Positions 2,865 to 21,404 of a DNA stretch of 64,000 nt are shown here, one piece after another. Each line of letters opens with the position of its first letter. The first letter of the stretch is position 1. A program made the translations under genes and the position numbers. Below the pieces are notes generated by a model. It saw nothing but the letters and a program-made list of their open reading frames with translations. It searched no databases and was not told the origin of the DNA. Source of the stretch: Spirochaetia bacterium (GTDB taxonomy: Bacteria; Spirochaetota; Spirochaetia; WTKD01); the NCBI GenBank assembly GCA_965243525.1, contig OZ251568.1, forward strand, positions 466,119 to 530,118, read 5' to 3'.

Positions 2865-3657
2865 ATTCATAGACCAGTGTTTCAATTGAAACACATGAAC
2901 CTGATTCACTATCAATCGCTGCAACAACACCATGGATCGTTGCAGTATTCTCACTGACCGTAAAGGGTAAGGGAATATTGGTAGTCATATTTTTCACACT
3001 CGTGTTTGCATTAAATCCAATAACACTTTCGCGGGGAATGCAGGCTCCTATGTCGGTGCAATATCCCGTCCCTTTTTGCTGGATGCGAGCATCGCGAGTC
3101 TGTGTGTGCGTATGGGTGCCAAAAACAAGGCTTGCCTTGCCATCGAAATACTGCGCAAAGGTCTGTTTCTCAGCCACATCCTCGGCGTGAAAATCAACAA
3201 TAACAATTGAACTATTGTCCCCTTGCTTTTTTATAGCTGCCTGCACCGCCTTAAAGGGGCAATCGATTGCATCCATGTGCTTTCTTCCCTGTGCGTTTAT
3301 GATCAATATATTTTTTTCGTTCACCTGCATAGAGCACCATCCCTTTCCTGGACATACCGATGGATAATTGATCGGTCGCAGGACTCGATCTTCCCTATTC
3401 AGAAGTTCATAAGCTTCGTCTTGTCGCCACACATGGTTGCCTGTCGTGATAACATCGACACCCACGTGGTGTAGTTCTTGAATAATCGAATAGGTAATCC
3501 CAAACCCCTCGCACGCATTCTCTGCGTTAGCAAGAATTAGGTTTGGACGATATTTTGAGCGGAGTGTTGCAAGAGAAGTAGTCACTGCTCGCATCCCTGG
3601 ATGGCCAATAATGTCACCAAGAACAAGAACAGTGAATAATTTAGCGGGCATATTCAA
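2854..3657 (-). CDS. ymdB: YmdB-family metallophosphoesterase (2',3'-cyclic-nucleotide phosphodiesterase, TIGR00282-like).
   Basis: LVLGDIIGHPG...LILANAENA..G.GIT...GVDVITTGNHVW...FHAE..AEKQ...GTHTHTQTRDARI are the characteristic YmdB motifs. The gene lies immediately downstream of rny, as in Bacillus. Confidence 0.75.
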   Translation of the reverse strand: MNMPAKLFTVLVLGDIIGHPGMRAVTTSLATLRSKYRPNLILANAENACEGFGITYSIIQELHHVGVDVITTGNHVWRQDEAYELLNREDRVLRPINYPSVCPGKGWCSMQVNEKNILIINAQGRKHMDAIDCPFKAVQAAIKKQGDNSSIVIVDFHAEDVAEKQTFAQYFDGKASLVFGTHTHTQTRDARIQQKGTGYCTDIGACIPRESVIGFNANTSVKNMTTNIPLPFTVSENTATIHGVVAAIDSESGSCVSIETLVYESIL

Positions 3658-5179
3658 TAATACGCGTTTCTCGAATCAACGTAATGCGAATTCTTCCTGA
3701 ATAGCTCAGCTCTTTTTCAATCCTCTTAGTGATATCGCGCGCTATCGTTCTCGTATCAACATCAGAAAGTGCCTCATGGTCAATGATCACCCGAAGTTCT
3801 CTTCCTGCTTGTATCGCATAGGCTTGTTTCACCCCTTCAAATTCCAAAGCAATTGATTCAAGTGCACGTAGTCGTTTGATGTATGCTTCCAGCGATTCTT
3901 TGCGAGCACCCGGGCGAGAAGCAGACAGCGTGTCTGCGATTTGTACAATGGCCGCTTCAATACAGATATATGGTACATCTCCATGGTGTGCCGCGATACA
4001 ATTCACCACCTTTTCAGATTCTTTCATCCGCTTTGCTAGTTCCACACCCAGTTCGACATGGCTTGCATCTGCATCTGAAAACAATGCTTTTCCAACATCG
4101 TGCAGCAGTCCACCGCGTTTTGCAATCACTACATCAGCGTGGAGTTCTGCAGCAAGCATTCCTGCGATATGCGCAACTTCAAGCGAATGGGTGAGCATGT
4201 TCTGCCCATAGCTCGTTCTAAAATGAAGCCTTCCAATTCCAGAAATACCTTCTTTGTTCATATTTTGAATTGAAAGGTCAAAGAGTGCTTTTTCTCCGAG
4301 TTCAAAAATATAATTTTGAATATCGACTTTTTGCTTTTCTACAATCTCTTCAATGCGCGTAGGATGAATTCTCCCGTCATTGATGAGGTATTCTAATGAT
4401 CGTCGTGCAACTTCACGTCGCACTGGATCGAAACAAGAAAGCGAAACAAATTCTGATCCGGCATCATCGATTATGATATCCACCCCAGTGAGGGTTTCAA
4501 GAGCACGAATATTTCGCCCCTCACGCCCGATGATCCGTCCCTTCATCTCTTGGTTCGGCAATTGCACCGAAACAGTCGTGTTTTCAACACTTACTTCAGA
4601 AGCAATTCGCTGCATCGATCCGACCAGCAACCGTTGTGCCAAACGCTGTGCATCCTGTGCTGCATCCTGCTCAACCTTGTTGATCAGCGATTGCGCATCT
4701 CGTTGTGCCTCTGTTTCAAGCGATTGAATAAGCATTGATTTTGCTTCTTCACTCGTGAGATCAGCAAGTTTTTCAACTTTCTTCCTCCACGATTCAATAT
4801 CCTGCTCTAGTTTTTTAGCGCCTTGATGTATTTTCCTCTCGCGAGAATCAAGTGCTGATTGTCTTCGTTGAAGTGACTGCGTTTGTGCCTCGCAAGAATC
4901 CTCACGATTTGAAAGACGTTTTTCTTGCCTTTTTAAATCGGAACGCATCTCACGAAATTCTTTTTCCTGCTCTAGACGCTCTTTTTGAAGAGCCTCTCGC
5001 GTCTTAAGAATTATTTCTTTTTTTTGTGCCTCAACTTCTTTAATTGCATCAAGCTTTAACCGTTCAGCTTTTTGTTCTTCAGATGTCAATTGAAATTTCG
5101 CATATAATAAGCGAAACAACCATCCAGCTACAATTCCCAAGAGAGGAAGTGCAATATAGACAATAACAATTATGTCCAT
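3641..5179 (-). CDS. rny: Ribonuclease Y.
   Basis: N-terminal TM helix, a long coiled coil (KAERLKLDAIKEVEAQKKEI...), KH domain (GREGRNIRALETLTGVDIIIDD) and HD domain (HSLEVAHIAGMLAAEL...LLHDVGKA). 512 aa. Confidence 0.9.
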   Translation of the reverse strand: MDIIVIVYIALPLLGIVAGWLFRLLYAKFQLTSEEQKAERLKLDAIKEVEAQKKEIILKTREALQKERLEQEKEFREMRSDLKRQEKRLSNREDSCEAQTQSLQRRQSALDSRERKIHQGAKKLEQDIESWRKKVEKLADLTSEEAKSMLIQSLETEAQRDAQSLINKVEQDAAQDAQRLAQRLLVGSMQRIASEVSVENTTVSVQLPNQEMKGRIIGREGRNIRALETLTGVDIIIDDAGSEFVSLSCFDPVRREVARRSLEYLINDGRIHPTRIEEIVEKQKVDIQNYIFELGEKALFDLSIQNMNKEGISGIGRLHFRTSYGQNMLTHSLEVAHIAGMLAAELHADVVIAKRGGLLHDVGKALFSDADASHVELGVELAKRMKESEKVVNCIAAHHGDVPYICIEAAIVQIADTLSASRPGARKESLEAYIKRLRALESIALEFEGVKQAYAIQAGRELRVIIDHEALSDVDTRTIARDITKRIEKELSYSGRIRITLIRETRIIEYAR

Positions 5180-5299
5180 TGTATTCCTCCACTACATATT
5201 TATCTGGACCCCTGCCAGACTGCCCATTATACCTAGCGACAGATATCCTTGTCAAATTGATTGCACAGATAGAATCATCCTTCTATAGTTGTAGCATAC

Positions 5300-6580
5300 A
5301 TGGCAGCGTATAGTGTCAAGAATATCGCTACGGGGAGAATTTTTGAGGATCGGTTCACCGACAAGGGATTTCTGCTGAGTGATCCAAAGTCTGCAGATGA
5401 TAGCCTGCTCCAAACGGTATATCCAAAGGATGCACGGATTGACACTTCAAAAAATACGTTTGAACGCTATGCAGGATTTATTCCCACCAATCGCCCCATT
5501 CCCCCCGGATCGCGATCAATTACCTACCATGCAACAACATTGGGTGAACATCTTGGATTAGAACAATTATACATCACCGTCAGTGGCTATGTGCCTCGAT
5601 TGGGGACTACCTACATGTCAGGAAGTTTTAAAGAATGTGAGGCCCTATCCGTCTTTGCACGCATGCCTCAGAATGCTCATGGGAAGACCCTTGTGATTGC
5701 TTCTGCTGGAAATACTGCACGCGCCTTCGCTCATATCGCTGAACTATGCGAACAACCAGTGCTTCTTGTTGTTGCAGAACAAAATGCATCAGCACTCTGG
5801 TGTCGCCATCCCGATCCTCGGTTTGTTCGAGTCTTGCATGTTGCTCATGGAGATTATTACGATGCGATTCACGCGGCAAATATCGTATGCAGCTTTGACG
5901 GTTTTATCCCAGAAGGTGGGGCAAAAAACATCGCACGGCGCGATGGCATGGGGACGACCATGCATGAGGCCATCTCCGTGATGGAAGCAATCCCCCAACA
6001 TTATTTTCAGGCAGTTGGAAGTGGTACCGGCGCAATAGCTGCCTGTGAGGCCGTGGAACGGAGAATTGAACGAGAATATCCGAATGCTCCGCTGTGCACC
6101 CTACACCTTTCACAAAATGCTCCCTTCACGTTGCTGGTTGACTCGTGGAACACCCGGACAAGATCCTTGGCAGAACTTTCTGACGATGATGGAAGAGCCC
6201 AAAGTGCAGTGATCCACGCGCCAGTCCTTGCAAATCGCAACCCAGTCTATGGCATTTCCGGTGGCGTTTTCGACGTTTTGCATAAGACAAATGGACATAT
6301 GTATGCGGTGACAAATGAGGAAACGAAACAGTCGCAGGCCGAATTCACCCATTGTGAAGGCTATGATATCGATCCTGCCGCCGCAGTAGCCTATGCAAGT
6401 CTTAAACAGGCAATTGCATTGGGGCGCATCCCCACTACCGATCTGTGCATGCTGAACATCACCGGGGCAGGATATGCAGGAATTTTTCAATCCTTCAACC
6501 CTCAACCACTTTCACCCAACTGGACAATCGATGTAGGACAGATGACTCATGACACCCTTGCATCCTTACTGCTAGAATAA
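5300..6580 (+). CDS. PLP-dependent threonine-synthase-fold enzyme, cysteate-synthase-like.
   Basis: A candidate PLP-lysine motif (MSGSFKECEA) is followed by TLVIASAGNTARAFA, the fold-type II PLP signature of the threonine synthase/cysteate synthase family. 426 aa. Confidence 0.55.
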   Translation: MAAYSVKNIATGRIFEDRFTDKGFLLSDPKSADDSLLQTVYPKDARIDTSKNTFERYAGFIPTNRPIPPGSRSITYHATTLGEHLGLEQLYITVSGYVPRLGTTYMSGSFKECEALSVFARMPQNAHGKTLVIASAGNTARAFAHIAELCEQPVLLVVAEQNASALWCRHPDPRFVRVLHVAHGDYYDAIHAANIVCSFDGFIPEGGAKNIARRDGMGTTMHEAISVMEAIPQHYFQAVGSGTGAIAACEAVERRIEREYPNAPLCTLHLSQNAPFTLLVDSWNTRTRSLAELSDDDGRAQSAVIHAPVLANRNPVYGISGGVFDVLHKTNGHMYAVTNEETKQSQAEFTHCEGYDIDPAAAVAYASLKQAIALGRIPTTDLCMLNITGAGYAGIFQSFNPQPLSPNWTIDVGQMTHDTLASLLLE

Positions 6581-6598
6581 CACAAGGAATTACAAGAC

Positions 6599-7873
6599 AT
6601 GGATATTTTTCAAAAATGCGATACAGATCAAGGAAATTTCGGAACTTTGCGCGCAGCAGGTGATCGATGTTTCACACGTCCCACACTTTCGCCGAAGCCT
6701 GGCAGAATCATGCAATCGGATGGAAAGCCCCTCATTATGTGGTCGGTGAACAATTATCTGGGACTCGCCAACCATCCAGAAGTTCAGAAAGTGGCTGAAG
6801 AGACGATACGCACTTATGGGGTGAGCGCTCCTATGGGATCGCGCATGATGAGCGGCACCACCGAGCACCACCTTGCCTTCGAGGAAGCGCTTGCTGAATT
6901 TTCTCAAAAAGAAGCTGCCTATTTGTTTAACTATGGATATATGGGCGTCCTAGGCATCGTGAGTGCCCTTGTTGGAAAAAAAGACATCGTTATTATGGAC
7001 AAGCTCGCACACGCATGCATCGTTGATGCTGCATTTTTGTCACAGGCAACCGTTCGCGTATTCAGACACAACAATCCAGACAGTCTTGAATCAATTCTTA
7101 AACGCCTCAACCACAGCGATGAAGGAGGAGTGATGATCATCACCGAAGGAGTCTATGGAATGACCGGCGATCTTGCTCCACTTCCTGATATCGTAGCGTT
7201 AAAAAATAAATACAAGGCGCGCCTCTTCATTGATGATGCACATGGCTGCGGCGTCATCGGTGAAAAAGGACGAGGAACCGCTGATCATTTTGGTGTTCAG
7301 GACGATATCGACATCTATTTCGGCACCTTTGCAAAATCTTTCGCCGGCATAGGTGGATTTGGCGCATCTTTCAAAAATGTCATCGAATGGATTGGTTATA
7401 ATGCGCGCACCCAGGTCTTCGCAAAAAGCCTTCCTATGATTTACGTGAAGACCATGCAAAAGATGTTGGAGCTCATCGAAAGCGGCGATGCGCTTCGCTC
7501 CCAACTCTGGAAAACAAGTAATGCCTTGAAAGAAGGGTTAAAAAACGCCGGGTATTTCATAGGCCCGGGGCATTCTCCCATATGCAGTGTTTTTCTTCCT
7601 CTGCACGGGAGTACCGTAGAAGAAATTGCAGGAAGAACGGTCTCTTTTTTGCGAAAAGCAGGCGTCTTCGTTTCGATAGTGGCCTATCCTGTTATTCCGA
7701 TGGGACTCTGTATGTTTCGACTCATCCCCACCGTTGAGCATCTTCCTGAAGATGTCGAAACAACTGTACAGCAGTTCATCGCTATGCGTGATGCCTTGAA
7801 ACTAGACATGTCTTTCAATGCGACTGATCTTGAAAAGATTCAACAACTCTATGGAAAAAATGTAGTGATTTGA
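6599..7873 (+). CDS. Alpha-oxoamine synthase (class II aminotransferase), serine-palmitoyltransferase/cysteate-acyltransferase-like.
   Basis: DIFQKC...PLIMWSVNNYLGLANHPEVQKVA, FIDDAHGCGVIGEKGRGTADHFGV and GTFAKSFAGIGGF (the PLP-Lys region) are alpha-oxoamine synthase motifs. The N-terminal extension is more SPT-like than KBL- or BioF-like. 424 aa. Confidence 0.7.
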   Translation: MDIFQKCDTDQGNFGTLRAAGDRCFTRPTLSPKPGRIMQSDGKPLIMWSVNNYLGLANHPEVQKVAEETIRTYGVSAPMGSRMMSGTTEHHLAFEEALAEFSQKEAAYLFNYGYMGVLGIVSALVGKKDIVIMDKLAHACIVDAAFLSQATVRVFRHNNPDSLESILKRLNHSDEGGVMIITEGVYGMTGDLAPLPDIVALKNKYKARLFIDDAHGCGVIGEKGRGTADHFGVQDDIDIYFGTFAKSFAGIGGFGASFKNVIEWIGYNARTQVFAKSLPMIYVKTMQKMLELIESGDALRSQLWKTSNALKEGLKNAGYFIGPGHSPICSVFLPLHGSTVEEIAGRTVSFLRKAGVFVSIVAYPVIPMGLCMFRLIPTVEHLPEDVETTVQQFIAMRDALKLDMSFNATDLEKIQQLYGKNVVI

Positions 7874-7897
7874 ACTGTTGTTCAGCAAGAAAATCGC

Positions 7898-9028
7898 CTA
7901 AAAGGGCAATTCCATTGTATTGTTCTTCCACTTCAGCGAACGAAATTTCATTCCATTGATCAACAGTCGGGGCAATGGTTTTCGACGACGCTTTGGTGTT
8001 AGCTGATAGGAGATGTTTTTCGTGATCGGCACCTTGTAGGCTTCGACAAATTCAATCAGAGTGCCATCCATATCCTCTATATAGGCAAAACGCCCAGAAG
8101 CCTCATTCATATCAAAAGATTCCTTGCTGTCGATAACAAATGGATAGCCAAAGGATTCGCAGGTTGTTTTCAATGCATCCATATTGGTGACGTCAAAACA
8201 GGCATGGATAAACCCCATATCTCCCCACAATCGCCCCTCATAGATTCGATTAGGCACCCGGTCCAGCACCTGCACCAATTCTATCGTGCTTTCTCGGAAA
8301 AAATGTTGTAATGGCCCGGCTGCCTTGTTTCGGAGTAGCACACGGCGGAGTTCATTTTTGCCCCCGAAAAGCGATTGCATATCCTCAAAGTTTCCGACTT
8401 CATCATAGACAATATCCGTATATCCTAAAATATCTCGATACAATATCAAAGACGCATCTATATCTGAGACCCCAATCACAACCCCCATGACTCCCCCAGT
8501 CTTGGTCCTTCCAATTGTGTTCTCACCGGGAGGATAATATTTTGGATCAGAAAACCACGACGTGCCTGTTTGAATGTTAAAGGTGTTGCCGTTAAAATCA
8601 GCCATATAAAAATGTTGATTACCTGATGGGTCTAGCAACGGTTCAGTGTGCACATATAAATCAGCAGCATAGTAGGCATCAAAACAAGGTAATACCTGGG
8701 GAGATCGAATAACCACTGCAAAAATACCAAGATCGCCGATTTTCGACATCTCAATGGATTGCTCACTGTATCGACTTTTGTATTGCCAGATTTCCAGACC
8801 GCCGCCACCTGCCATATTCATCATAAACGCAGCATGCCGCAGGTGAATTTCGCCACCGGTATAGGGAATCATCAATTCCGCAACGTCTTCATCTTGAAAA
8901 ACCATGGTGTTAAACCCAAAAAACCGTCCATACCATTGCAGAGCAGGAGCAAGCGTACTGACACCGACGCCTACTTGCTGGATGCCTCCGATACTATATT
9001 CATCGTTATTTGTTTTGTTATTTGCCAT
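7898..9028 (-). CDS. Two-domain VOC (glyoxalase/bleomycin-resistance/dioxygenase) superfamily protein.
   Basis: 376 aa. The tandem beta-alpha-beta-beta-beta-like halves (GIQQVGVGVSTL...; GVMGVVIGVSDIDASLILYRDILGY) resemble VOC modules. Function unknown. Confidence 0.4.
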   Translation of the reverse strand: MANNKTNNDEYSIGGIQQVGVGVSTLAPALQWYGRFFGFNTMVFQDEDVAELMIPYTGGEIHLRHAAFMMNMAGGGGLEIWQYKSRYSEQSIEMSKIGDLGIFAVVIRSPQVLPCFDAYYAADLYVHTEPLLDPSGNQHFYMADFNGNTFNIQTGTSWFSDPKYYPPGENTIGRTKTGGVMGVVIGVSDIDASLILYRDILGYTDIVYDEVGNFEDMQSLFGGKNELRRVLLRNKAAGPLQHFFRESTIELVQVLDRVPNRIYEGRLWGDMGFIHACFDVTNMDALKTTCESFGYPFVIDSKESFDMNEASGRFAYIEDMDGTLIEFVEAYKVPITKNISYQLTPKRRRKPLPRLLINGMKFRSLKWKNNTMELPF

Positions 9029-9077
9029 ATTCTAGTCCTGTGATTGCATACCTCTCACTAGCACAGATAGCCTCGCA

Positions 9078-9701
9078 CTATACAGGGATCCTGTCAAGAA
9101 TAAAGATCAGTCCAAACACGAGCACCCAGACAATACAAAATAGCGATGAGAATGGATGCACCGTGAATGTGTTCTGGTCTGTGTGTTCAGCATGCAATAT
9201 GTCATAGGCATCTGTACTGAGTTTTTTGCCAATGTTTTTTATCGTAGTTATGCGGATTGCTTTATGTTTTTTTATGAGCATCTCAAAATAAACAAAGACC
9301 TGAAGTAGTGTTGTTCCAAATGTTCCCGGAAGCCTGAGCGATGGATGGATGCTTGATAGGGAAAAAAAGACCATTGCAACAAAGGTTTGTCCACGAAGCA
9401 GCCCTTGGGTGATGGCGCCGAGGGTAACTGGAAAGGAAAAAATATAGAACAGAACCGTTCCGTTGGGAATAAACACATGACTGATCAAGACTGCAATGAG
9501 CAGCATCACGAAATACCAAATGCGGATGCGTTTTTTTTGCATAGTCGCACAGAGCAAGAATACACCGATGCATACAAACCTATAGACAATTGATTCTATT
9601 GATACAAATGCAATGAATGTGATGATGCCAGCACAGAGTTGTATGAAGGCTTGACGAGCAAGAACATGCTGATTCTTCTGATATATCCATGCAATCATCA
9701 A
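9078..9701 (-). CDS. Polytopic membrane protein of unknown function. It overlaps the upstream gene by 4 nt.
   Basis: 207 aa with 5-6 hydrophobic helices. It is translationally coupled (ATGA overlap) with 9698-10243. Confidence 0.4.
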   Translation of the reverse strand: MMIAWIYQKNQHVLARQAFIQLCAGIITFIAFVSIESIVYRFVCIGVFLLCATMQKKRIRIWYFVMLLIAVLISHVFIPNGTVLFYIFSFPVTLGAITQGLLRGQTFVAMVFFSLSSIHPSLRLPGTFGTTLLQVFVYFEMLIKKHKAIRITTIKNIGKKLSTDAYDILHAEHTDQNTFTVHPFSSLFCIVWVLVFGLIFILDRIPV

Positions 9702-10243
9702 TGAGCCATTTGTGCCGCAAAATAATATTCACGAATCCACGAAAAATTCTGATGCTGGCGTGCAACAAGATATCCTACTCCCAATCCTCCTATTGTTCCG
9801 GTGACAACAAAAGGAAATAGTAAAAATCGCCCTCCCTCACCGTAAATCAACAGAATTGCCAGCAACATTTGAGTGATATTGCTTGCCAGACTTCCAAGAA
9901 GGCTCATTCCGATATACGAAATTTTGTCACGTACAACTGCCTTCCGCACCGAGATCATAATCAACAGGCTTGCAATATTTCCGCCAACAGAAAACAAAAA
10001 CACATAGGATAGCAAGGTTCCATGTATAATTGCTTGTCCAAAAACTTTCAGGAACAGAAGCATAAAGAGATCTCGTTTTTTCATGAATGTGATGACCAAG
10101 AGAATTGGGATGTTGGCGATGCCGAGTCGAAAAAATGGATAGGGCTTTGGGATGAGGTATTCTATACCAGCAAGAAAGAGCGCTGCCGCCCCGAGTATTG
10201 CCAAGAGTTTTTGTTCATTGCTCAGAACACTAGCTGTTTGCAT
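9698..10243 (-). CDS. Gx-transporter / heptaprenyl-diphosphate-synthase-component-I-like membrane protein (pfam07456-like).
   Basis: 181 aa, about 5 TM helices, with the pattern LAILGAAALFLAGIEYLIP...GIANIPILLV...SLLGSLASNITQMLLAILLIYGEG, reminiscent of the Hpre_diP_synt_I / Gx transporter family. Confidence 0.4.
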   Translation of the reverse strand: MQTASVLSNEQKLLAILGAAALFLAGIEYLIPKPYPFFRLGIANIPILLVITFMKKRDLFMLLFLKVFGQAIIHGTLLSYVFLFSVGGNIASLLIMISVRKAVVRDKISYIGMSLLGSLASNITQMLLAILLIYGEGGRFLLFPFVVTGTIGGLGVGYLVARQHQNFSWIREYYFAAQMAH

Positions 10244-11414
10244 ATGCTAGCGGTATCGTGATGGTAATGGTTGTTCCTTTGTCGACTTCACTTGAAATAG
10301 CAATCTTTCCCCTATGTGCGATGATCACCTTCTGCACGCTAACCATCCCCAACCCATGGCCTCCATGGAACTTTGTAAAAAACGGATCGAAAACCTTCTT
10401 TATGTCTTCTTCTTCCATACCTACCCCAAAATCCTCAACCACGATATTCCAGACATTGTCGTCAATAGTGCTAGATACGTGGATTTCCTTCCCCTCTGCT
10501 GATGCCTTTATTGCATTATCGATGACATTGAAGAGCATTCGTTCAACACGCATAAGATCAATAAAGGCAACTGCCTCGCCATCCGTTTTGTAGCGCAAGG
10601 TGATTTTCTGTTCATCGCATTGCATGCGCCATCGCTCAACAAGATTCATGAACAAGGAATTGATTGATACTGAAGAAACTTCCAATGTTTCATTTCCAGA
10701 AACAAGATCAAGAAGATCTTCAATAAATGACTCCAGGCGCCTGCATTGTTCTTTCAACCGATCTGAAATAGTCAGCACAAATCGCTCATCACCAGCGCGA
10801 TTCCGGAGCAAATGCTCAAGCAACTGCAGGCTTGACACCGAACTACGGAGATCATGCACGACCAAAGAAGACAGTTTTCCCAATTGAGTAAAACACTCTG
10901 TTCGCAGCATTGTCTCTTGTTGTTCTTTGAGCTTGTTGTGCGCATTCTTCAACGCGGTGTTTTGAAGCTGCAAATTTTGGGTGAGCTCGCTGGTATTTCG
11001 TACGACGATCTTTGTAAGTGAACGCAGAAAAACGCCTGCAACTTGGCTATTTTCGTTGAGAATTTTTCGGATGTTCAAGCCGTCAATAACAAAAACATCA
11101 ATTTCCATAGTGGAAACAATCGTAGCACTTCGCGGAATTTGTTCAATAACACCTATTTCACCGAGAATGGAACCAGCTTCATAGGATCCCAGATAGATCG
11201 CATCAGGTGTTTCATAACTTTTCCAGATCGATACTTTTCCACTAAAAATAACATAGAGCTCATTTTCAATTGATCCTTCCTTACAAACAATATCATTTTT
11301 TTGATATGTCCTAAGAGAACCAATAGCTGCAATGCGCTCTATGTCTTCGGCAGGAAGGCTTTTAAATAAATCAGTTTCCTGAAGTTTTGTAACAATTGAC
11401 GCGTGATCATCCAT
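10230..11414 (-). CDS. Cytoplasmic sensor histidine kinase with an N-terminal cyclic-nucleotide-binding (CAP-family) domain.
   Basis: cNMP-binding beta-barrel pattern (LFKSLPAEDIERIAAIG...GSILGEIGVIEQIPRSATIVS), H-box VVHDLRSSV, N-box/G1 VEDFGVGM, G2 GGHGLGM. No transmembrane segments and no adjacent response regulator. Confidence 0.75.
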   Translation of the reverse strand: MDDHASIVTKLQETDLFKSLPAEDIERIAAIGSLRTYQKNDIVCKEGSIENELYVIFSGKVSIWKSYETPDAIYLGSYEAGSILGEIGVIEQIPRSATIVSTMEIDVFVIDGLNIRKILNENSQVAGVFLRSLTKIVVRNTSELTQNLQLQNTALKNAHNKLKEQQETMLRTECFTQLGKLSSLVVHDLRSSVSSLQLLEHLLRNRAGDERFVLTISDRLKEQCRRLESFIEDLLDLVSGNETLEVSSVSINSLFMNLVERWRMQCDEQKITLRYKTDGEAVAFIDLMRVERMLFNVIDNAIKASAEGKEIHVSSTIDDNVWNIVVEDFGVGMEEEDIKKVFDPFFTKFHGGHGLGMVSVQKVIIAHRGKIAISSEVDKGTTITITIPLAYANS

Positions 11415-11445
11415 AGTGACTACGTATCATATATAGTACTGATTT

Positions 11446-12150
11446 CTACCAATTGTCAATCATGTCATCAGGATCACGCTGCAACACATCTACATTGGTC
11501 ACGACCCGCAAATCATCAAAATAGATGTAGTAACGCCCATAGGTTTCGAGCAATGAAGATTCGATTTGTAACCCTATGATCTCAAGGCCAGCATTAAAAT
11601 CATCGCCGACTCCTAGCGTAGTGTATCCTTGAATATTTGGAGGAACCGCTGCGGTGAGCTGTTTCCATCCAAGAAATTGCAGTTTTCCAAAACTCAGTAT
11701 ACTGATCTCTCCGAATTGATTTCGTACGAACAGTTTTAACTCATACGGTGTGTTTCTTCCTGCAACCCAGATTGAAAAGGAATGTGCAATTCCTGGCACA
11801 GGAATCGGTCGTGCAGGTAGTATCGCTAATGTTGAATAGGTGCGTCGAAAAAAGTCAGTTCGAACACCCAAGACAAAATCGTCCACCGCCCCCTGTGGGG
11901 CAAGAGCAGTCTCAAGAACCTGAGCATCCTTTGCATCTGGAGAGCCACGTAGTGATCGGTGCTGGATAACGCCATCGTCGATGGAAACCTCAGTTGTCCA
12001 AAATCCAGCATCTTCAAACTTATCAAGTGAAATTTCTTGAAGATTGGGATCAAATGTACCCTGGTCTATTAAAGCAGGATCGATGTCAAGCTGTCCAAAT
12101 GCAGCCAATGCACCAAAAAGTATCAATATAGTTGTCGTTATTACTCTCAT
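11446..12150 (-). CDS. Secreted protein, paralogue of 12160-12903. Candidate FlaA-family (flagellar filament outer-layer/sheath) protein.
   Basis: Signal peptide MRVITTTILILFGALAAFGQ. Shared paralogue motifs are FSIWVAGRNTPYELKLFV...LGWKQLTAAVPPNIQ...YYIYFDDLRVV. The pattern ([IV]S.WV.G.N...L..V ... GW[RK]QL ... Y[FI]YFDDL) matches my recollection of FlaA (pfam04620), not verified. Confidence 0.45.
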   Translation of the reverse strand: MRVITTTILILFGALAAFGQLDIDPALIDQGTFDPNLQEISLDKFEDAGFWTTEVSIDDGVIQHRSLRGSPDAKDAQVLETALAPQGAVDDFVLGVRTDFFRRTYSTLAILPARPIPVPGIAHSFSIWVAGRNTPYELKLFVRNQFGEISILSFGKLQFLGWKQLTAAVPPNIQGYTTLGVGDDFNAGLEIIGLQIESSLLETYGRYYIYFDDLRVVTNVDVLQRDPDDMIDNW

Positions 12151-12159
12151 AAATGCTCC

Positions 12160-12903
12160 CTAATTTGTGTCCTCTGCACCAGTGGATTGATCACTTGCCT
12201 CTTCCCATCGATTCTGTCGAATTTCCGGAACAGTGAGTTCTCCACCATCAACAACGCGTGTATTTGTTCGCGAAAGTGCTTGCAAATCATCAAAATACAC
12301 AAAAAATCCATTCACTGGTTCTCGTGGTTCGGTCCACAACACAATTTTGTCTAAGTAAAGCCGAGCAAAATTAAACTCATATGGATCAACCCGCGGAATG
12401 CTCGTTGGAATCGTTGCAGTTAACTGTCTCCATCCATGATAATTCATTCGGCCCATGGGTACTTGATGAACCATTCCACGATAATCACGTACATGGATCT
12501 CCAATGTAAAATCATAATTTGATCCCCATACCCACATAGAAACACCAATTGTATCTCCAGGCAGGTCAATTGGGCGCTTTTCATAACTACCATCAGAAAG
12601 TCTTTCTATAGGAAGAATTTCTAGATAGTTATATCCTCTCTGTTCAAAAGCAGCTTCTACACCAAGTACACGAAGATCTGCATTTTCAGTATTGTACCCA
12701 TATAATGCGGTTGGCCATGCATTGATGTATGAAACGCGGGGATACTCATCGGCAATCCGCCTGCTCCCGGTGACAACCCATTCGGTTGCAGGGTCAAAAT
12801 TATCAAATGTATCGAGTAACTTCGATGTATAACGTAATACATCTTCAGCCCCTAGGCTTCCCAATGAAAGTATGAGTATGAATGCTATAATAAAACGGCT
12901 CAT
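12160..12903 (-). CDS. Secreted protein, paralogue of 11446-12150. Candidate FlaA-family sheath protein.
   Basis: Signal peptide MSRFIIAFILILSLGSLGA. Motifs VSMWVWGSNYDFTLEIHV...HGWRQLTATIPTSIP...FFVYFDDLQAL align with the neighbouring paralogue. Confidence 0.45.
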   Translation of the reverse strand: MSRFIIAFILILSLGSLGAEDVLRYTSKLLDTFDNFDPATEWVVTGSRRIADEYPRVSYINAWPTALYGYNTENADLRVLGVEAAFEQRGYNYLEILPIERLSDGSYEKRPIDLPGDTIGVSMWVWGSNYDFTLEIHVRDYRGMVHQVPMGRMNYHGWRQLTATIPTSIPRVDPYEFNFARLYLDKIVLWTEPREPVNGFFVYFDDLQALSRTNTRVVDGGELTVPEIRQNRWEEASDQSTGAEDTN

Positions 12904-12948
12904 ATTTGCTCCTCTGTCGCGAGTAAACTTTGACTACAAAGTCTCACC

Positions 12949-13914
12949 CTAGTATCGGTGAAATACTGCAGGAACATAAACCCTGTCTTTTGTTTTATCA
13001 CGAGTTACGCTATAAGAAATAATATCTTCTAATCGAAATCCAATACTCATAGTCGCTCCCAAATACTCCGCACCGTCTACAAAGAAACTCTCAATGCAAA
13101 TTTCTCCATTGAGTCCAGAAATACTTTCATACACAGTGCCTATATGCGAACCAAGGAAAAAAAGAAAATAGTCCGCATCTCTGTGTTTCCCTATATCTTC
13201 GACAACTCGTGTGATGATCGTCTCCTCATCAAAATAGACAAGTTCTCGTACAGCAACAGCAGCATCGTTGAGCAATCCGTCTGACAGAACTGCATATTCC
13301 TCTGTGGTGAGTGTCCCCCTTGCGTGGAATATCACAACCTCTTTTTCTTCAGAAGAATCTGTTTGTTCGTCTTCGCGAAGAATGTAATCCACCATTTCTT
13401 GAAGCGCATTGCGCCTGTCCAGGATGAGTGTTTGTCGTAGCAATTTGTTTTCTTGATCCACGGGCTCAGATGACAAGGTTGCAGACTCATCGGGCATCGT
13501 TGCATCAGAATCATCTTGTGGAAATGCTCCCAATGGACTATCTGATTCACGAGCAAGACGAATGTGCACGTATTGCGCTTGATTGCGCGGTTGGAATCGT
13601 TTTAATTCGGCGTCAATCTGCAATTGATATGAAGGAAAAAACAATACTTCTTTGCTATGATGGAGGGCCATTTTTTGGAAAGGATGGAGCAGATTGGATG
13701 CGGAGCGCAGCAACAACCCGCGGAGGGCGAACTGGGGAGCATCTGGATCATCACCTTGCAGATCAGCGAGAATTCTTTTTGTCTCTTGTTTGATATTTCC
13801 TGGATAACTAGCCGCGAGATAAGTATCATAAACGATAATCGTGTTTCCACAAGCGGTAATTCCAAGAAGGATGATACCGAGCAATAATAACTGGTTTTTC
13901 ATTCTAAACATCAC
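12949..13914 (-). CDS. Lipoprotein of unknown function.
   Basis: Lipobox LLGITAC-G after an N-terminal hydrophobic segment. 321 aa, no recognisable catalytic motif. Confidence 0.45.
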   Translation of the reverse strand: MMFRMKNQLLLLGIILLGITACGNTIIVYDTYLAASYPGNIKQETKRILADLQGDDPDAPQFALRGLLLRSASNLLHPFQKMALHHSKEVLFFPSYQLQIDAELKRFQPRNQAQYVHIRLARESDSPLGAFPQDDSDATMPDESATLSSEPVDQENKLLRQTLILDRRNALQEMVDYILREDEQTDSSEEKEVVIFHARGTLTTEEYAVLSDGLLNDAAVAVRELVYFDEETIITRVVEDIGKHRDADYFLFFLGSHIGTVYESISGLNGEICIESFFVDGAEYLGATMSIGFRLEDIISYSVTRDKTKDRVYVPAVFHRY

Positions 13915-13921
13915 TCAACAG

Positions 13922-14728
13922 TCATGAAAATAGGGTGGTGATCGTAGTAAACGTCCCCAATTTGTGAAATCCATAGATACATCCAACAAACACAACCGTA
14001 AAAAGTCCAAACAATATATATTGATATTGATAAAACAGCATGGTAATAAACACCACAAATACCCCATAGGTAATAAGAAGCAGGACTTGATGTATGAATT
14101 TCTTATATCTAAACATCTGAAGGGTTGTGCGGATCGTTTGTATCACCGGTGACTCAGATCTAGCAGCTGTTGATTCCCGAAAAAAACTCCAGCGACTTGG
14201 CACGCCACTAGATAAAGATCGGTTATTTTTTGATTTAATTGCAATGCATTCGAGGATAATTATAGTAATGAACGGTATTGCGATCGAAAAAAACGGTGCT
14301 ATCGCACCAACATACACAGCTCGCTCAAGGTTTTGCATGAATAACAATCGCCCAATATTGTATATGACTAAAAACAAAAACTGCAAATAGAGAAATTGTT
14401 TTATTTTTGCAGGATCTGTTTGAGAACGAAAAGGCGTCAAAACTCGCATGACCCAAGCAGTTGCAAGATAGGTGGTGAGCAGCGGTGCGGCTATTTCACG
14501 TACGAACACCACTATAACGTGAGTTATTCCCATGGTGTTCAGGGGAAGGTAGAGCGCAATAAAAAAAGGAACAAGAAGAGTCAGCGGCAGAACATGACAG
14601 ATATAACATAACGTGCGAATCGAAAACGTCTTCCATGTTTTTTCTTGATCAATTACCACGAGATAACTCAGCACAAATGGGCCAACTGTTAACAAAAGCA
14701 CATGCATAAAACTATCCTGCAGTATCAT
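13922..14728 (-). CDS. Polytopic integral membrane protein of unknown function.
   Basis: 268 aa with 7 or more hydrophobic helices. It is the first gene of the co-directional minus-strand array 14728->7898. Confidence 0.45.
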   Translation of the reverse strand: MILQDSFMHVLLLTVGPFVLSYLVVIDQEKTWKTFSIRTLCYICHVLPLTLLVPFFIALYLPLNTMGITHVIVVFVREIAAPLLTTYLATAWVMRVLTPFRSQTDPAKIKQFLYLQFLFLVIYNIGRLLFMQNLERAVYVGAIAPFFSIAIPFITIIILECIAIKSKNNRSLSSGVPSRWSFFRESTAARSESPVIQTIRTTLQMFRYKKFIHQVLLLITYGVFVVFITMLFYQYQYILFGLFTVVFVGCIYGFHKLGTFTTITTLFS

Positions 14729-14753
14729 AGCAAGTTGTGATAGTTATTCCTAG

Positions 14754-14782
14754 TTGCATGTTAGCTTGTTTCACCATATACT
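14754..14782 (+). promoter_or_regulatory. Sigma-70-type promoter for infC-rpmI-rplT: TTGCAT, 17-nt spacer, TATACT.
   Basis: -35 TTGCAT at 14754-14759 and -10 TATACT at 14777-14782, spacer exactly 17 nt, about 30 nt upstream of the infC start. Confidence 0.4.
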
Positions 14783-14812
14783 TCATATGTATGAAATATA
14801 CGGGAACAATTT

Positions 14813-15367
14813 GTGGCAGATACAAAATTACGTATTAACAATCGTATCCGCGTAGCGGAAGTTCGTCTCATTGATGAAAACGGAAATCAGATGGGAATAG
14901 TAAGTACTGCAGCTGCCTTGAAACGGGCTGAAGAAAGCTCTTTGGATCTGGTGGAAGTCGCCCCTCGGGCTAAACCTCCTGTTTGCAAGATCCTTGATTA
15001 TGGGAAGTATCAATTCGATACGAACAAGCGACTGCGTGGGATGAAAAAAAGCACGAAGACTTCAAAGCTCAAAGAAGTGCGTATGCAGCCTAAAATCAGC
15101 ATCCATGATTTGACGTTTAAGACAAAGGCAGTGCAGACATTTTTATCTGAAGGAAGTAAGGTAAAGGTCAGTATTCGCTTTCGTGGTAGAGAATTTGCCC
15201 ATACTGAATTAGGAAAGGAAGTATTGGAAAGAACACTTGAAATTCTTACAATTCCTGTTAAAATTGAGAAAGCACCGGCGATGGAAGGACGTATGATGAC
15301 CATGCTTCTTGCTCCTGGGGTTAAGAAAGTGAAAAGAGAACAAGAAGATGCCAAAGATAAAGACTAG
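14813..15367 (+). CDS. infC: Translation initiation factor IF-3. The apparent start is GTG.
   Basis: [29 protein letters not shown]...[23 protein letters not shown]...[14 protein letters not shown] has strong IF-3 identity. A non-AUG start is typical for infC autoregulation. Confidence 0.9.
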
Positions 15368-15545
15368 ACGAAGTGCTGCAAAGCGATTTTCATTTACAGC
15401 AAATAAAAAAGTTAAATACAAAAAGCAAGGACTCAGGCATATTCTTACAAAGAAAAGTACAAAGCGAAAGCGATCTCTGCGACATAGCGGTATTTTGAGT
15501 CCTGCTGAATCACAACGAATGCAAAGGATGCTTCCAAACGGATAG
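15348..15545 (+). CDS. rpmI: 50S ribosomal protein L35.
   Basis: [39 protein letters not shown]. Confidence 0.9.
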
Positions 15546-15549
15546 AATT

Positions 15550-15897
15550 ATGGCACGATCAGTTAACGGACCAAGTAGAAAAAATAAAAGAAAAAAAATA
15601 CATAAAATTACAAAGGGATTTCGCGGACGTCCTGGAAATCTATATCGAGCAGCGAAAGACGCGGCTCGTCGTTCATTGGTGTATGCATACCGTGATCGAC
15701 GACAAAGAAAGCGCTTTTTTCGCCGTATTTGGATTCAACGTATCTCGGCAGCTTGCCGTGAAAACGGACTTCGATACTCTGAGTTCATTGCCTTACTCAC
15801 ACAAAAGGAAATTCACCTAAACAGAAAGACACTTGCGCATATTGCAGCAACGGATCCTTCATTGTTTGGTGAACTCGTAAAAAAAGTACAAGAATAA
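15550..15897 (+). CDS. rplT: 50S ribosomal protein L20.
   Basis: MARSVNGPSRKNKRKKIHKITKGFRGRPGNLYRAAKDAARRSLVYAYRDRRQRKR.FRRIWI.RI.AA.R.NGL.YS.FI..L. Confidence 0.9.
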   Translation: MARSVNGPSRKNKRKKIHKITKGFRGRPGNLYRAAKDAARRSLVYAYRDRRQRKRFFRRIWIQRISAACRENGLRYSEFIALLTQKEIHLNRKTLAHIAATDPSLFGELVKKVQE

Positions 15898-15928
15898 CAT
15901 TCTTGCTGCATCATTAAAGGGGAGATTA

Positions 15929-16834
15929 ATGGATGTACAAAAACTAACTATATTAAATAAAAAAATTATTGAGGCGATTGATTGTATTTCTCGACTACGA
16001 AGAGAAAATGATCAATTGCACAAGGAAAATCGACAGCTCACCGAACAGAACGATCTAAAAAGTGCAACGATTGAAGAATTACACGGGGAACTCGATTCAT
16101 ATGGCGAAAACTTCGGTGAGATTGAGCAGACGCTCAATCAATCACTTGAGGCTCTTGTCAAATTGGAAAATGCATTGGAACCAACTAATTCTGAAAATGC
16201 TAACTCTGATGTGGAACCAGAACTTGAAAATTCAGCTAGCGAAGCTTTGGAGAGTACAGAATTCTCCACCGAAAACGAAGATTCTGCTCAAAGCGACCAC
16301 ACACAGAAAACAGATCAAGAAAATTCCGATGTGAAAGACAATGACCTGGCAGCAGCTGTCATCGATGCTGCACCAGCGCATGATGAACCAAATACGATTG
16401 TTAATGGTTCGTTTCATACTGAAACTGAAGAGGCTCCGAAGCAGGTGGATACATCAACCGATGATTTTCTTGATGCGTATACTCCTTCGTCCAATGCAGC
16501 AAACAGCTCTGATCAAACTGATGTTGCTACTCCTGTTGCAATGGCAGCACCTAGCGGTGTGCAGAACAACAACGAATTCATCGATATGATTAATAACAAA
16601 TCAAACGCTACGAAAGAGGAATCACTTTCTCCTGAAAAAATCGCACAAGCAAAAGAATTCCCTTCTGAATCCCACCTTCCACTTCAAGAACAAGAGATAA
16701 AGCCACAAACGACTTCATTGTGGGATGTCACATTTAACAATGCTGCCCCTGTGAACAGTGAGTCTAGTGCAAAAAGAGAAACAGATAGACAGGATTCTTT
16801 TTCACTGTTTGATTTTCCGAGTTCGTCTCAGTAA
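15929..16834 (+). CDS. ZapB-like coiled-coil cell-division protein with a long acidic low-complexity C-terminal extension.
   Basis: N-terminal MDVQKLTILNKKIIEAIDCISRLRRENDQLHKENRQLTEQ resembles the ZapB coiled coil. About 230 aa of D/E/S/N-rich disordered tail follow. The gene sits directly upstream of zapA. Confidence 0.45.
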   Translation: MDVQKLTILNKKIIEAIDCISRLRRENDQLHKENRQLTEQNDLKSATIEELHGELDSYGENFGEIEQTLNQSLEALVKLENALEPTNSENANSDVEPELENSASEALESTEFSTENEDSAQSDHTQKTDQENSDVKDNDLAAAVIDAAPAHDEPNTIVNGSFHTETEEAPKQVDTSTDDFLDAYTPSSNAANSSDQTDVATPVAMAAPSGVQNNNEFIDMINNKSNATKEESLSPEKIAQAKEFPSESHLPLQEQEIKPQTTSLWDVTFNNAAPVNSESSAKRETDRQDSFSLFDFPSSSQ

Positions 16835-16839
16835 AAAAT

Positions 16840-17118
16840 ATGCGCATTGAACACCTAGGCCTATCCTTTGAAATCAATGCCGATATATCTGCTGAACAAC
16901 TTGAGGTTCTCCAAGAGCGGGTAACGCGTGTTCTTGCCAGTGTTCAGAAAGAGAATACTGGTGCGAGCACCGCGTTGCAGCAGGCGATTTTGGGACTCTA
17001 TCACCTGGCAAATGCCTGTGTTGAGTTAGAAGAACAGCACACAACGACTGTTTCACAGCTTACACAAGCTGCAAAAATCACCGACGCAATGCTGCTAAAA
17101 ATTTCTGATATTGTCTAA
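16840..17118 (+). CDS. zapA: Cell division protein ZapA.
   Basis: 92 aa: I..LGLSFEINADISAEQLEVLQERVTRVLASVQKE...LQQAILGLYHLANACVELEEQ, the ZapA fold pattern, in the conserved position after the infC-rplT cluster. Confidence 0.55.
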   Translation: MRIEHLGLSFEINADISAEQLEVLQERVTRVLASVQKENTGASTALQQAILGLYHLANACVELEEQHTTTVSQLTQAAKITDAMLLKISDIV

Positions 17119-17193
17119 TTAGGATTACAATAACAAGCCACACCTAAACCATAGAAACAACTGTTCTTCTATGGTCTATACCTCCTCCAATAG

Positions 17194-17222
17194 ATAAAGT
17201 TTAGCTACCTGGAAACCGAATA
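17194..17222 (+). promoter_or_regulatory. Sigma-28 (FliA)-type promoter upstream of flaB1.
   Basis: TAAAg-N15/16-aCCGAaTAT at 17194-17222, versus consensus TAAA-N15-GCCGATAA, about 120 nt upstream of the flaB1 ATG. Confidence 0.4.
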
Positions 17223-17344
17223 TGAGAGCAGGGAGAAGTATTATTGTCTACTTCCTCTAATCAAAGCTTCGGTGTTTGAAGAAATGACATTAGTGTTTTT
17301 TAGCATGGATGCTAATTTTTTGAAAAAATATTCAAGGAGGATGT

Positions 17345-18202
17345 ATGATCATCAATCATAATCTTAGTGCAATGTTTGCACAAAGGTATAGCGGCATCAA
17401 TGATGCAAATTTAACAAGGAACATTGAGCGGTTGTCTTCTGGACTACGTATTACCCGCGCTGCCGACGATGCGTCAGGGCTTGCTGTCTCTGAAAAGATG
17501 CGTGCACAGATACGGGGTCTGTATGCCGCATCAAGAAATGCGTCAGATGGCATTGCGTTTATACAAACAGCTGAAGGGCATCTGCAGGGAACCACTGAGG
17601 CCTTGCAACGAATTCGCGAGCTTTCTATTCAAGCAGCAAATGGCATCTATTCAGCTGAGGATCGCATGCAAATACAAGTTGAGATTTCTCAACTGGTGGA
17701 TGAAGTCGACAGAATTGCTTCTCAAGCACAGTACAATGGAATGAATATTCTTACTGGACGATTTGCCCGTGATGTAGGAACCAATGTGGTTACTGCCAGT
17801 ATGTGGTTTCATATTGGGGCAAATATGGATCAACGGGAACAAGCCTATATTGGAACGATGTCTTCTGCTGCGTTAGGGCTTCGATTTCCAAATAATGATT
17901 TTGTTTCACTTTCTACCCCTGATGGCGCCAACAGAACCATCGGAGTAGTTGATCGAGCCTTAATGATTGTGAATAAGCAACGAGCTGATCTCGGTGCCTA
18001 TCAGAATAGGCTTGAATTAACGGTGCGAGGAACAGATCTCAGCGCTGAGAACCTGCAGGCAGCTGAATCACGTATTCGAGATCTTGATTTTGCTGCAGGA
18101 GTGAGGGAATTCACGAAGAATCAAATTTTGATGCAGTCAAGCACTGCTATGTTGGCTCAGGCAAACCTGAAGAGTCAATCGGTACTCGGTTTGCTCCAAT
18201 AA
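17345..18202 (+). CDS. flaB: Flagellar filament core flagellin FlaB (copy 1).
   Basis: [59 protein letters not shown] is the canonical spirochete FlaB N-terminus. The C-terminus [27 protein letters not shown] is also conserved. RBS AAGGAGGA. Confidence 0.9.
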
Positions 18203-18256
18203 CGGAGCTGGTGAATACCACGGATCTTTGACATCAACCTCCTTGATGGCCATTGG

Positions 18257-18284
18257 AGGGCAGTTTTAGTTCTGAAATTGCCCT
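18257..18284 (+). terminator. Hairpin between flaB1 and flaB2. Weak terminator/attenuator candidate.
   Basis: aGGGCAgtttt-agttctg-aaatTGCCCt has a stem of about 10 bp with 1 mismatch, followed by ctgtcatggtttt. The U-tract is poor. Confidence 0.3.
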
Positions 18285-18342
18285 CTGTCATGGTTTTAAG
18301 GCGCGTACTTTCTACCATGGTAGTCATTGTGAAGGAGGTCAT

Positions 18343-19182
18343 ATGATAATTAATCATAATGCGAGTGCAGCATTTGCTAGCAGAGAATTACGTTTTCACG
18401 GAGCAAGGAATGCACAAAGTATTGAACGCTTAAGTTCAGGGTTACGTATTAACAGCGCCGGAGACGACGCGTCTGGACTTGCGCTTGCTGAAAAGCTTCA
18501 AACGCAAATTCGAGGGTTACGGCAGGCAGATAGAAATATCCAAAGTGCTATTTCCTTCATTCAGACAACAGAATCGTATCTACAAGGAACTCAAGATTCA
18601 TTACAACGTATTCGTGAGCTTGCTGTTCAATCAGCAAACGGAATCTATTCGTTAGGTGACCGTGCTCAAATTCAAGTTGAGGTATCAATGCTTGTTGATG
18701 AAATCAGTAGGATAGCATCTCAGGCAGAGTTCAACCGATTGAACATGCTTACCGGAAGGTTTGCTCCTGGTGCCCTAGAAATCATGCAGTTTCATATTGG
18801 GGCAAACGAAAACCAAAATGTTCAAGTGCATATCGGTAATATGTCAGCTGAAGGGCTTGGCTTGCGCGGTGAGGCAAACAATACCTCTATTTCAACTGTG
18901 GCGACTGCCAATGAAACAATTGGAATCGTGGATAATGCTCTTGATACTGTCGTCAAGCAACGGGCTGATCTCGGTGCATATCAAAACAGATTTGAGATTG
19001 CACAAAAGAGTATTGCTGTTGCGGCAGAAAACATGCAGGCTGCTGAATCGTATATTCGCGATGTTGATATGGTTGAAGAACTCTCTGAATATGTAAAAAA
19101 TCAGATGCTCACCCAAACAACAACGGCGATGCTCGCACAAGCAAATACACAACCTGAAATTGTGCTGCAATTGTTGGGTTAG
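18343..19182 (+). CDS. flaB: Flagellar filament core flagellin FlaB (copy 2).
   Basis: [59 protein letters not shown]. The start was chosen at the ATG preceded by GAAGGAGG rather than the upstream ORF-track ATG at 18253. Confidence 0.9.
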
Positions 19183-19207
19183 GAGATTTCTGGACGATAT
19201 CTCTTTG

Positions 19208-19240
19208 GTGGCAGAGTCGCGCTTCTGTCACTCTTTTTTC
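19208..19240 (+). terminator. Rho-independent terminator after flaB2.
   Basis: gtgGcagaGTCGCGCTtctgTcac forms an 8-bp stem with one G.U pair, followed by tcttttttc. It lies 26 nt after the flaB2 stop. Confidence 0.55.
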
Positions 19241-19269
19241 AGCTTTATGCTGTTAGTTGGCAAAATACC

Positions 19270-19608: not shown

Positions 19609-19617
19609 CGGAGCACT

Positions 19618-21369: not shown

Positions 21370-21404
21370 TTATAATTCAATAGAATGGATACGCCACAAC
21401 AAAT

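Follow-up and report, generated by a model that had tools for sequence, protein, structure and literature searches.

The closest described counterparts of the genes considered here are found in Treponema denticola, in which TDE1408 and TDE1409 sit on the concave face (inner curvature) of the periplasmic flagellar filament as minor components of its sheath. Cryo-electron microscopy, mass spectrometry and deletion mutants indicate that both are required for sheath stability and normal motility (10.64898/2026.01.31.703064; 10.64898/2026.02.04.703737). The two sources are bioRxiv preprints from February 2026, and the structures are available as PDB 9pin and 10pl; TDE1409 is FlaA2, and the preprints differ on TDE1408, one naming it FlaA3 and the other FlaA1. 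In T. denticola the proteins form a strip in the order FlaA2-FlaA3-FlaA3-FlaA2, in which FlaA2 contacts the FlaB core, with E158 and Y160 reported as FlaB1 contacts, and the terminal peptide of FlaA2 rearranges upon FlaAP1 binding (10.64898/2026.01.31.703064; 10.64898/2026.02.04.703737). Leptospira FlaA2 likewise lies on the inner curvature. Here we describe a tandem of such genes, flaA3-flaA2, and the genes packed around it in a 64,000-nucleotide stretch of the 1.8-Mb genome of a Spirochaetia bacterium (assembly GCA_965243525.1, contig OZ251568.1, positions 466,119 to 530,118), hereafter referred to as the window.

The pair lies in a block of eight genes (7898-14728), all on the minus strand, which we number g1 to g8 in the direction of transcription. 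We consider that this block is probably, although by no means certainly, a composite of four pieces tightly packed by genome compaction, and not one conserved module. The first piece, flaA3-flaA2 (g3 and g4), would encode Sec-exported minor sheath proteins forming a concave strip that helps to set supercoiling and sheath stability. The second is a histidine kinase (g5), in which a domain binding cyclic nucleotide monophosphates (cNMP) probably gates autophosphorylation via a coiled-coil linker, and which would signal to a response regulator encoded elsewhere. The third, a membrane protein and a lipoprotein with a predicted type I periplasmic-binding-protein (PBP-I) fold (g1 and g2), may serve as a periplasmic ligand sensor or accessory factor. 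The fourth (g6-g8) would comprise a lineage-specific, transport-like membrane pair and a VOC enzyme with non-flagellar roles.

The layout agrees with the initial annotation of this DNA. All eight minus-strand open reading frames (ORFs) were re-found where it had placed them, and the gaps, which it had given as -14 to +50 nt with start/stop overlaps, were re-measured as +7, +45, +9, +31, -14, -4 and +49 nt from g1 to g8, that is, -14 to +49 nt. Its domain calls (a FlaA-like pair, a cNMP-histidine kinase and a VOC protein) are borne out by Pfam, and its description of the products as mostly secreted, lipidated or polytopic fits the polytopic g1, g6 and g7, the lipobox of g2 and the signal peptides of g3 and g4. 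No Pfam or NCBIfam family was matched by g1, g2 or g7, and an Rfam scan of window positions 5000-23000 gave no match.

The identity of the pair is the firmest part of the analysis. Both g3 (12160-12903, 247 aa) and g4 (11446-12150, 234 aa) belong to the FlaA family PF04620, with 83.1 bits (3e-23) and 89.6 bits (3e-25), respectively, against a Pfam cut-off of 25, and the two share 29% identity. Searched against PDB sequences, g4 matches best the 246-aa chain 10pl_E/9pin_A0 (1.7e-44, 155 bits; 42 bits for the TDE1408 chain), and g3 matches best the 236-aa chain 9pin_A7/10pl_C,D (7.7e-36, 127 bits; 52 bits for the TDE1409 chain); the chains were assigned to TDE1409 (246 aa) and TDE1408 (236 aa) because of their lengths. 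By sequence comparison, g3 and g4 are one-to-one orthologues of TDE1408 and TDE1409, the matches being reciprocally best. The N-termini, MSRFIIAFILILSLGSLGA/ED in g3 and MRVITTTILILFGALAAFG/QL in g4, were read by eye as Sec signal peptides, which indicates Sec-type export, not flagellar type III export. The resemblance to the T. denticola pair extends to the tandem arrangement in the same order, the lengths (234/247 aa here, 246/236 aa there), the signal peptides, the PF04620 fold and the FlaA2-type C-terminal tail, whereas sequence similarity is only moderate (155 and 127 bits). From this orthology we infer that g3 and g4 would have the same concave-side sheath role in this organism. In the alignment of FlaA2-type proteins, a Gln (Q20) at the predicted mature N-terminus of g4 is invariant, as is an acidic C-terminal tail, DPDDMxDNW, whose final residue is Trp.

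The Leptospira proteins FlaA2 and FlaA1 (PDB 10lk, 10ll and 10lm) are also products of tandem sheath genes and belong to the same Pfam family, but they are paralogues or distant relatives of g3 and g4. Matches to the Leptospira PDB chains have E-values of about 1e-16, and the NCBIfam models NF047846 and NF047845 (Leptospira FlaA2 and FlaA1) give only 65-69 bits where an equivalog would need 440-500. The assignment of g3 and g4 as Leptospira FlaA1/FlaA2 equivalogs was rejected on these scores.

For comparison, a g4-family profile search of species-representative genomes yielded 570 loci, all from Spirochaetota according to their record titles. Eighty of them, together with the locus of Alkalispirochaeta americana (L001), make up a set of 81 (L001-L081), and 173 g4 homologues were collected. 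The closest relative is L002, with a g4 homologue that is 72% identical; L002 and L003 are the top two by g4 identity. Denominators vary: 71 loci had enough sequence for the kinase, 66 were testable for the lipoprotein, and the terminator was scored in 77 relatives. Domains were called with Pfam and NCBIfam, transmembrane segments from hydropathy, and signal peptides and the lipobox from the sequence. The flaA3-flaA2 tandem is kept in 80 of the 81 loci, the exception being L064, in which the first gene is cut off by the contig end.

Directly downstream of flaA2 lies g5 (10230-11414, 394 aa), predicted to be a soluble histidine kinase. From N- to C-terminus it comprises a cNMP-binding domain, a coiled-coil linker, a dimerization and histidine-phosphotransfer domain with His187, and a catalytic ATPase domain; Pfam matches are PF00027 (9e-15), HATPase_c (1.5e-24) and HisKA. 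The phosphate-binding cassette, of the form G-E...R-S-A-T, reads LGEIGVIEQIPRSAT, with G85, E86, R95, S96 and A97 as its key residues, and His187 lies in the H-box VVHDLRS, followed by the N, G1, F and G2 boxes NVIDNAIKA, DFGVGM, FDPFF and GGHGLG. The cassette residues, His187 and the four boxes are invariant in a 24-sequence subset and at least 90% conserved across 46 orthologues, and because of this conservation both domains are probably functional. The predicted ligand of the N-terminal domain is cyclic AMP (cAMP) or cyclic GMP (cGMP). No receiver (REC) domain was found in the 64-kb window or adjoining the kinase in relatives, and g5 is classed as an orphan because the window encodes none.

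Similar designs are known with another messenger. SgmT and RavS, which bind cyclic di-GMP (c-di-GMP), are, like g5, soluble orphan kinases with a messenger-binding input domain, but the input of g5 is a cNMP domain of the CAP/PKA type, and our literature search found no characterised histidine kinase with this architecture. In Leptospira, cAMP alters swimming, according to a study that names no receptor for the signal (PMC9043183). The gene neighbourhood of the T. denticola pair also differs from the present one: it includes the ComFB c-di-GMP receptor TDE1406 (PMC11581024), whereas the window has the cNMP kinase and the PBP-fold lipoprotein.

The link between kinase and pair was found from both directions. 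In 44 of 71 loci a kinase gene of the g5 family begins no more than 300 nt past the end of flaA2. In the reverse direction, a kinase profile was run against metagenomes, and flaA3-flaA2 was found upstream in 36 (86%) of the 42 loci with at least 2.8 kb of upstream sequence: flaA2 is directly upstream in 23, one extra gene intervenes in 13, and neither arrangement is seen in 6. As a genomic pattern across many spirochetes, the association is real. The conserved position after flaA2 suggests a role of g5 in motility or flagellar regulation. In one group of metagenome loci (L083, L085, L091-L094, L098, L099, L106-L108, L128, L133 and L152) flaA2 and the kinase are about 1.3 kb apart, and the insert encodes a conserved protein of about 259 aa (MTPEEELKxLNRxIRQFESV...) with neither a signal peptide nor a Pfam family. 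In some kinase-less loci flaA2 is followed instead by a gene for a secreted protein of 402-419 aa (L063 and L069, 10720-11979; L079, 10669-11898; L052, 4223-5431); the L063 protein, the one that was scanned, has a C-terminal OmpA (peptidoglycan-binding) domain.

On the other side of the pair, g2 (12949-13914, 321 aa; 317 aa in the database copy, with the start ATG at 13902) carries a lipobox, LGITA/C, as read from the sequence. Single-sequence searches with word-indexed methods returned only g2 itself, a 20-sequence profile returned g2 and one other protein, an exhaustive phmmer search of 1.84 billion representatives matched 5 proteins, and a PDB sequence search gave nothing meaningful. An iterative hidden Markov model built from g2 collected 47 family members; each is encoded on the strand of flaA3 and upstream of it, and a lipoprotein signal is present in most. 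The family directly adjoins flaA3 in 43 of 66 testable loci and was seen nowhere else within the 81 loci. An AlphaFold2 model of g2 from a 6-sequence alignment (predicted local distance difference test, pLDDT, 74.5; predicted TM-score 0.72) matched PBP-I proteins in all 50 top Foldseek matches listed against the PDB (E about 1e-7, TM-score about 0.5), among them the allose- and ribose-binding proteins AlsB and RbsB, LuxP, LacI-family domains and T. pallidum RfuA. This agrees with weak matches of the g2-family profile to TmpC, Lbp, LacI and FruR (best E 0.014), and g2 is predicted to have the two-lobe PBP-I fold. It would share the two-lobe alpha/beta architecture of RbsB, AlsB, LuxP, RfuA, TmpC/PnrA and the LacI ligand domain, as well as the lipid anchor of the T. 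pallidum members; it differs from them in lacking Pfam membership and adjacent ATP-binding cassette (ABC) genes and in being confined to the position upstream of flaA3. Neither in the block nor in the corresponding loci of relatives was an ABC permease or ATPase gene found beside g2. As a family that accompanies flaA3 in about two thirds of relatives, g2 may, on weak grounds, be a ligand sensor or accessory factor.

The first gene, g1 (13922-14728, 268 aa), encodes a polytopic membrane protein with about 7 transmembrane segments. In 48 loci the place upstream of the lipoprotein gene is taken by a single positional family of proteins of about 230 aa with 5-7 transmembrane segments, which g1 matches in position, size and topology. 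Sequence comparison of g1 with this family gave an hhalign probability of 1.9% and a median shuffle z of 0.42, in line with the 0.12 of controls; the only detectable g1 homologue among the 81 loci is in L002. A single-sequence AlphaFold2 model of g1 (pLDDT 52) was unusable.

Transcription signals divide the block in most relatives. An intrinsic terminator, a GC-rich hairpin with a T-run, follows flaA2 in 66 of 77 relatives, compared with 38 of 400 random segments, and inspection of the folds reveals one in L026, L066 and L073 as well, 3 of the 11 loci scored as lacking it. Because of this terminator, the ancestral state would be a flaA3-flaA2 unit ending before the kinase. None follows flaA2 in the window (11415-11445, a 31-nt gap with no structure), L002 or L003; it looks as if the terminator was lost in the window's lineage. 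Between the lipoprotein gene and flaA3, by comparison, the median gap is 117 nt and a terminator occurs in 1 of 44 loci. No strong terminator was found inside the block of the window, so co-transcription is plausible in this genome, and with the terminator missing after flaA2, transcripts from upstream may extend into the kinase and tail genes (g5-g8). The sole candidate promoter region upstream of the block is the 84-nt divergent g1/infC intergenic region (14729..14812). A consensus promoter scan that included this region showed no enrichment above shuffles, and no sigma-28 promoter was found upstream of g3 in the window. In about a dozen relatives, where about one would be expected by chance, flaA3 is preceded by an exact GCCGATA, similar to the -10 element of sigma-28 promoters; it lies about 140-185 nt upstream in L012, L018, L025, L040, L048, L067, L072, L076 and L079, is frequently preceded in turn, at a distance of about 15 nt, by an element resembling TTAA/TCAA, and is absent from the window.

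The tail of the block is of a different nature. The product of g6 (9698-10243, 181 aa) is a Gx-transporter/Hpre_diP_synt_I protein with 6 transmembrane segments (PF07456, 105 bits, 4.8e-30, cut-off 30). The start of g7 (9078-9701, 207 aa) overlaps the g6 stop by 4 nt; g7 encodes a membrane protein of no known family with 4-5 transmembrane segments and no PDB match. The cytoplasmic protein g8 (7898-9028, 376 aa) consists of two VOC modules (glyoxalase/dioxygenase superfamily; PF00903, 38.8 bits, 1.4e-9, in two stretches, cut-off 20.6; PF13669 also matches); it reached no specific VOC subfamily in NCBIfam, and a PDB sequence search with it gave nothing meaningful. These three genes stand beside the pair in L002 only, 1 of the 81 loci, with identities of 45% for g7 and 61% for g8, and there no kinase lies between flaA2 and the g6 homologue. 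By these comparisons g6-g8 are lineage-specific passengers, unrelated to flagella. In this part of L002 (10711-11452) the g6 homologue is split into two overlapping ORFs, by a frameshift or an assembly error. In the window, a threonine-synthase-like PALP enzyme gene and a KBL/AONS-like class I/II aminotransferase gene (5300-7873, plus strand) converge on g8; as the same two genes accompany the VOC gene in L002, g8 may belong functionally with them and not with the flagellar genes.

The wider surroundings contain both flagellar and housekeeping genes. Beyond the divergent infC-rpmI-rplT, zapB and a short ORF at the zapA position on one flank lie two flaB genes (17345-18202 and 18253-19182, plus strand), encoding FlaB-type flagellins of 285 and 309 aa, and fliD (19618-21369, plus strand), 3-7 kb from the flaA pair; the other flank is formed by the convergent genes for pyridoxal-phosphate enzymes. 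A 274-aa ORF directly 3' of fliD (21405-22229, plus strand) gave a weak Endotoxin_N match and nothing convincing in Pfam or the PDB. The neighbourhood in A. americana is similar, with the same flanking genes and a flagellin gene beyond; it also includes PilZN3-PilZ and PilZ c-di-GMP receptor proteins (2507-3403 and 17711-18199) and a methyl-accepting chemotaxis protein (MCP), and no PilZ gene was seen among those window ORFs that were scanned. In Treponema-like loci the pair stands alone, flanked by housekeeping genes (a racemase, Hsp33 and an aldolase-like ORF); ComFB was looked for beside the pair in these loci and was not found.

Several points weigh against reading the block as a composite of these four pieces. 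The residues of g4 that align with E158 and Y160 of TDE1409 are I151 and S153, and since the two contacts are not kept, details of the FlaB interface would differ. Homology of g1 to the positional membrane-protein family was sought in three ways and none was detected, the model of g2 was built from 6 sequences only with TM-scores of about 0.5, and transcript boundaries are predictions from sequence. Moreover, in the 40 genome loci with complete flanks, a kinase adjoins the pair in 23 of 32 infC-linked loci but in 0 of 8 unlinked ones; because adjacency is limited to infC-linked loci, it may reflect inherited synteny and not functional coupling. The genes infC-rpmI-rplT adjoin the pair about as often, yet are functionally unrelated to it.

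A rival explanation builds on the same facts: only flaA3-flaA2 would be flagellar, and everything else would be inherited synteny in a slowly rearranging chromosomal region, with gaps narrowed in a reduced 1.8-Mb genome. The equal conservation of infC-rpmI-rplT, the confinement of kinase adjacency to infC-linked loci, the terminator that separates flaA2 from the kinase in relatives, the solitary pair amid housekeeping genes in Treponema-like loci, and L002, which kept the pair and lost the kinase, all speak for it, and we take it seriously as a possibility while thinking it improbable. It accounts less well for the 86% of metagenome members of the kinase subfamily that have the pair upstream, including the variant with a one-gene insert, for the persistence of the flaA2-kinase junction while downstream flanks vary, and for a g2 family found nowhere else in the 81 loci.

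The association may also be read in the opposite direction, as a functional unit of Spirochaetaceae-type spirochetes consisting of membrane protein, PBP-fold lipoprotein, flaA3, flaA2, terminator and cNMP kinase. The kinase would then be the missing cAMP/cGMP receptor that couples cyclic nucleotides to sheath composition or motility, the lipoprotein and membrane protein would form an inner-membrane-side accessory for the concave, cell-body-facing strip, and T. denticola, with ComFB at the same place, would have swapped the messenger. The cultivable relatives A. americana (L001) and A. alkalica (L011) carry the arrangement in full. We regard this proposal as speculative and unlikely.

Another alternative concerns g1 and g2, which could act together to sense or take up a solute, the lipoprotein binding it and the membrane protein serving as partner, with the signal relayed indirectly to motility. 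Ribose-binding protein with Trg, and LuxP with LuxQ, are analogous arrangements. The predicted PBP-I fold of g2, with RbsB, AlsB and LuxP among its top structural neighbours, the membrane protein always immediately upstream of the lipoprotein gene, and the 43 of 44 loci that have no terminator between g2 and flaA3 are compatible with such a unit. The neighbourhood, however, has no ABC, MCP or kinase periplasmic domain, g5 lacks any membrane or periplasmic portion, and the model of g2 (pLDDT 74) is too poor for the ligand pocket to be assessed. We find this alternative doubtful and give it little credence.

The weakest reading takes all eight genes as one operon for one sheath or envelope-remodelling machine that cyclic nucleotides control. 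It is in keeping with the short gaps in the window, with the overlapping starts and stops and with the lack of a convincing internal terminator in this genome, but it already fails the comparative test and is very improbable: of the 81 loci, g6-g8 accompany the pair in just 1, from which the kinase is absent, transcription would end after flaA2 in relatives, and neither the cytoplasmic VOC protein g8 nor the transporter-family protein g6 has a flagellar link.

What the initial annotation had proposed on function can be judged from these results. Its two FlaA-like paralogues of a flagellar sheath are the reciprocal matches of solved T. denticola minor sheath proteins; its orphan histidine kinase with a cyclic-nucleotide sensor has the expected Pfam domains and no REC partner in the window; and the tie between this kinase and the flaA genes is seen in 44 of 71 loci and in 36 of 42 in the reverse search. 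It went too far in calling all the genes functionally unknown, as the pair is already described in two February 2026 preprints and PDB entries, and in joining eight genes into one operon, since a strong terminator in relatives splits flaA2 from the kinase and the tail genes occur beside the pair in L002 only. The idea of a sheath or envelope module survives as a sheath for g3 and g4 only, given the single locus with g6-g8 and the undetected homology of g1, and nothing was found that points to envelope remodelling. Conservation and synteny, likewise, hold for the pair (80/81), the kinase (44/71) and the lipoprotein (43/66), and not for the full eight-gene block.

It was only in 2026 that FlaA2 and FlaA3 were shown to make up the side of the Treponema flagellum that defines its curvature. 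The window and about 570 related loci show the pair to be widespread among Spirochaetaceae, both free-living and host-associated, and the FlaA2/FlaA3 architecture therefore probably extends well beyond T. denticola. Three uncharacterised gene families accompany the pair, the most concrete being the cNMP-binding kinase. The association of kinase and lipoprotein with the pair is, as far as we found, new, and we offer it as a lead whose functional meaning is unproven. In spirochetes other than Leptospira, the g5-type kinase is a candidate for connecting cyclic nucleotides with the flagellum.

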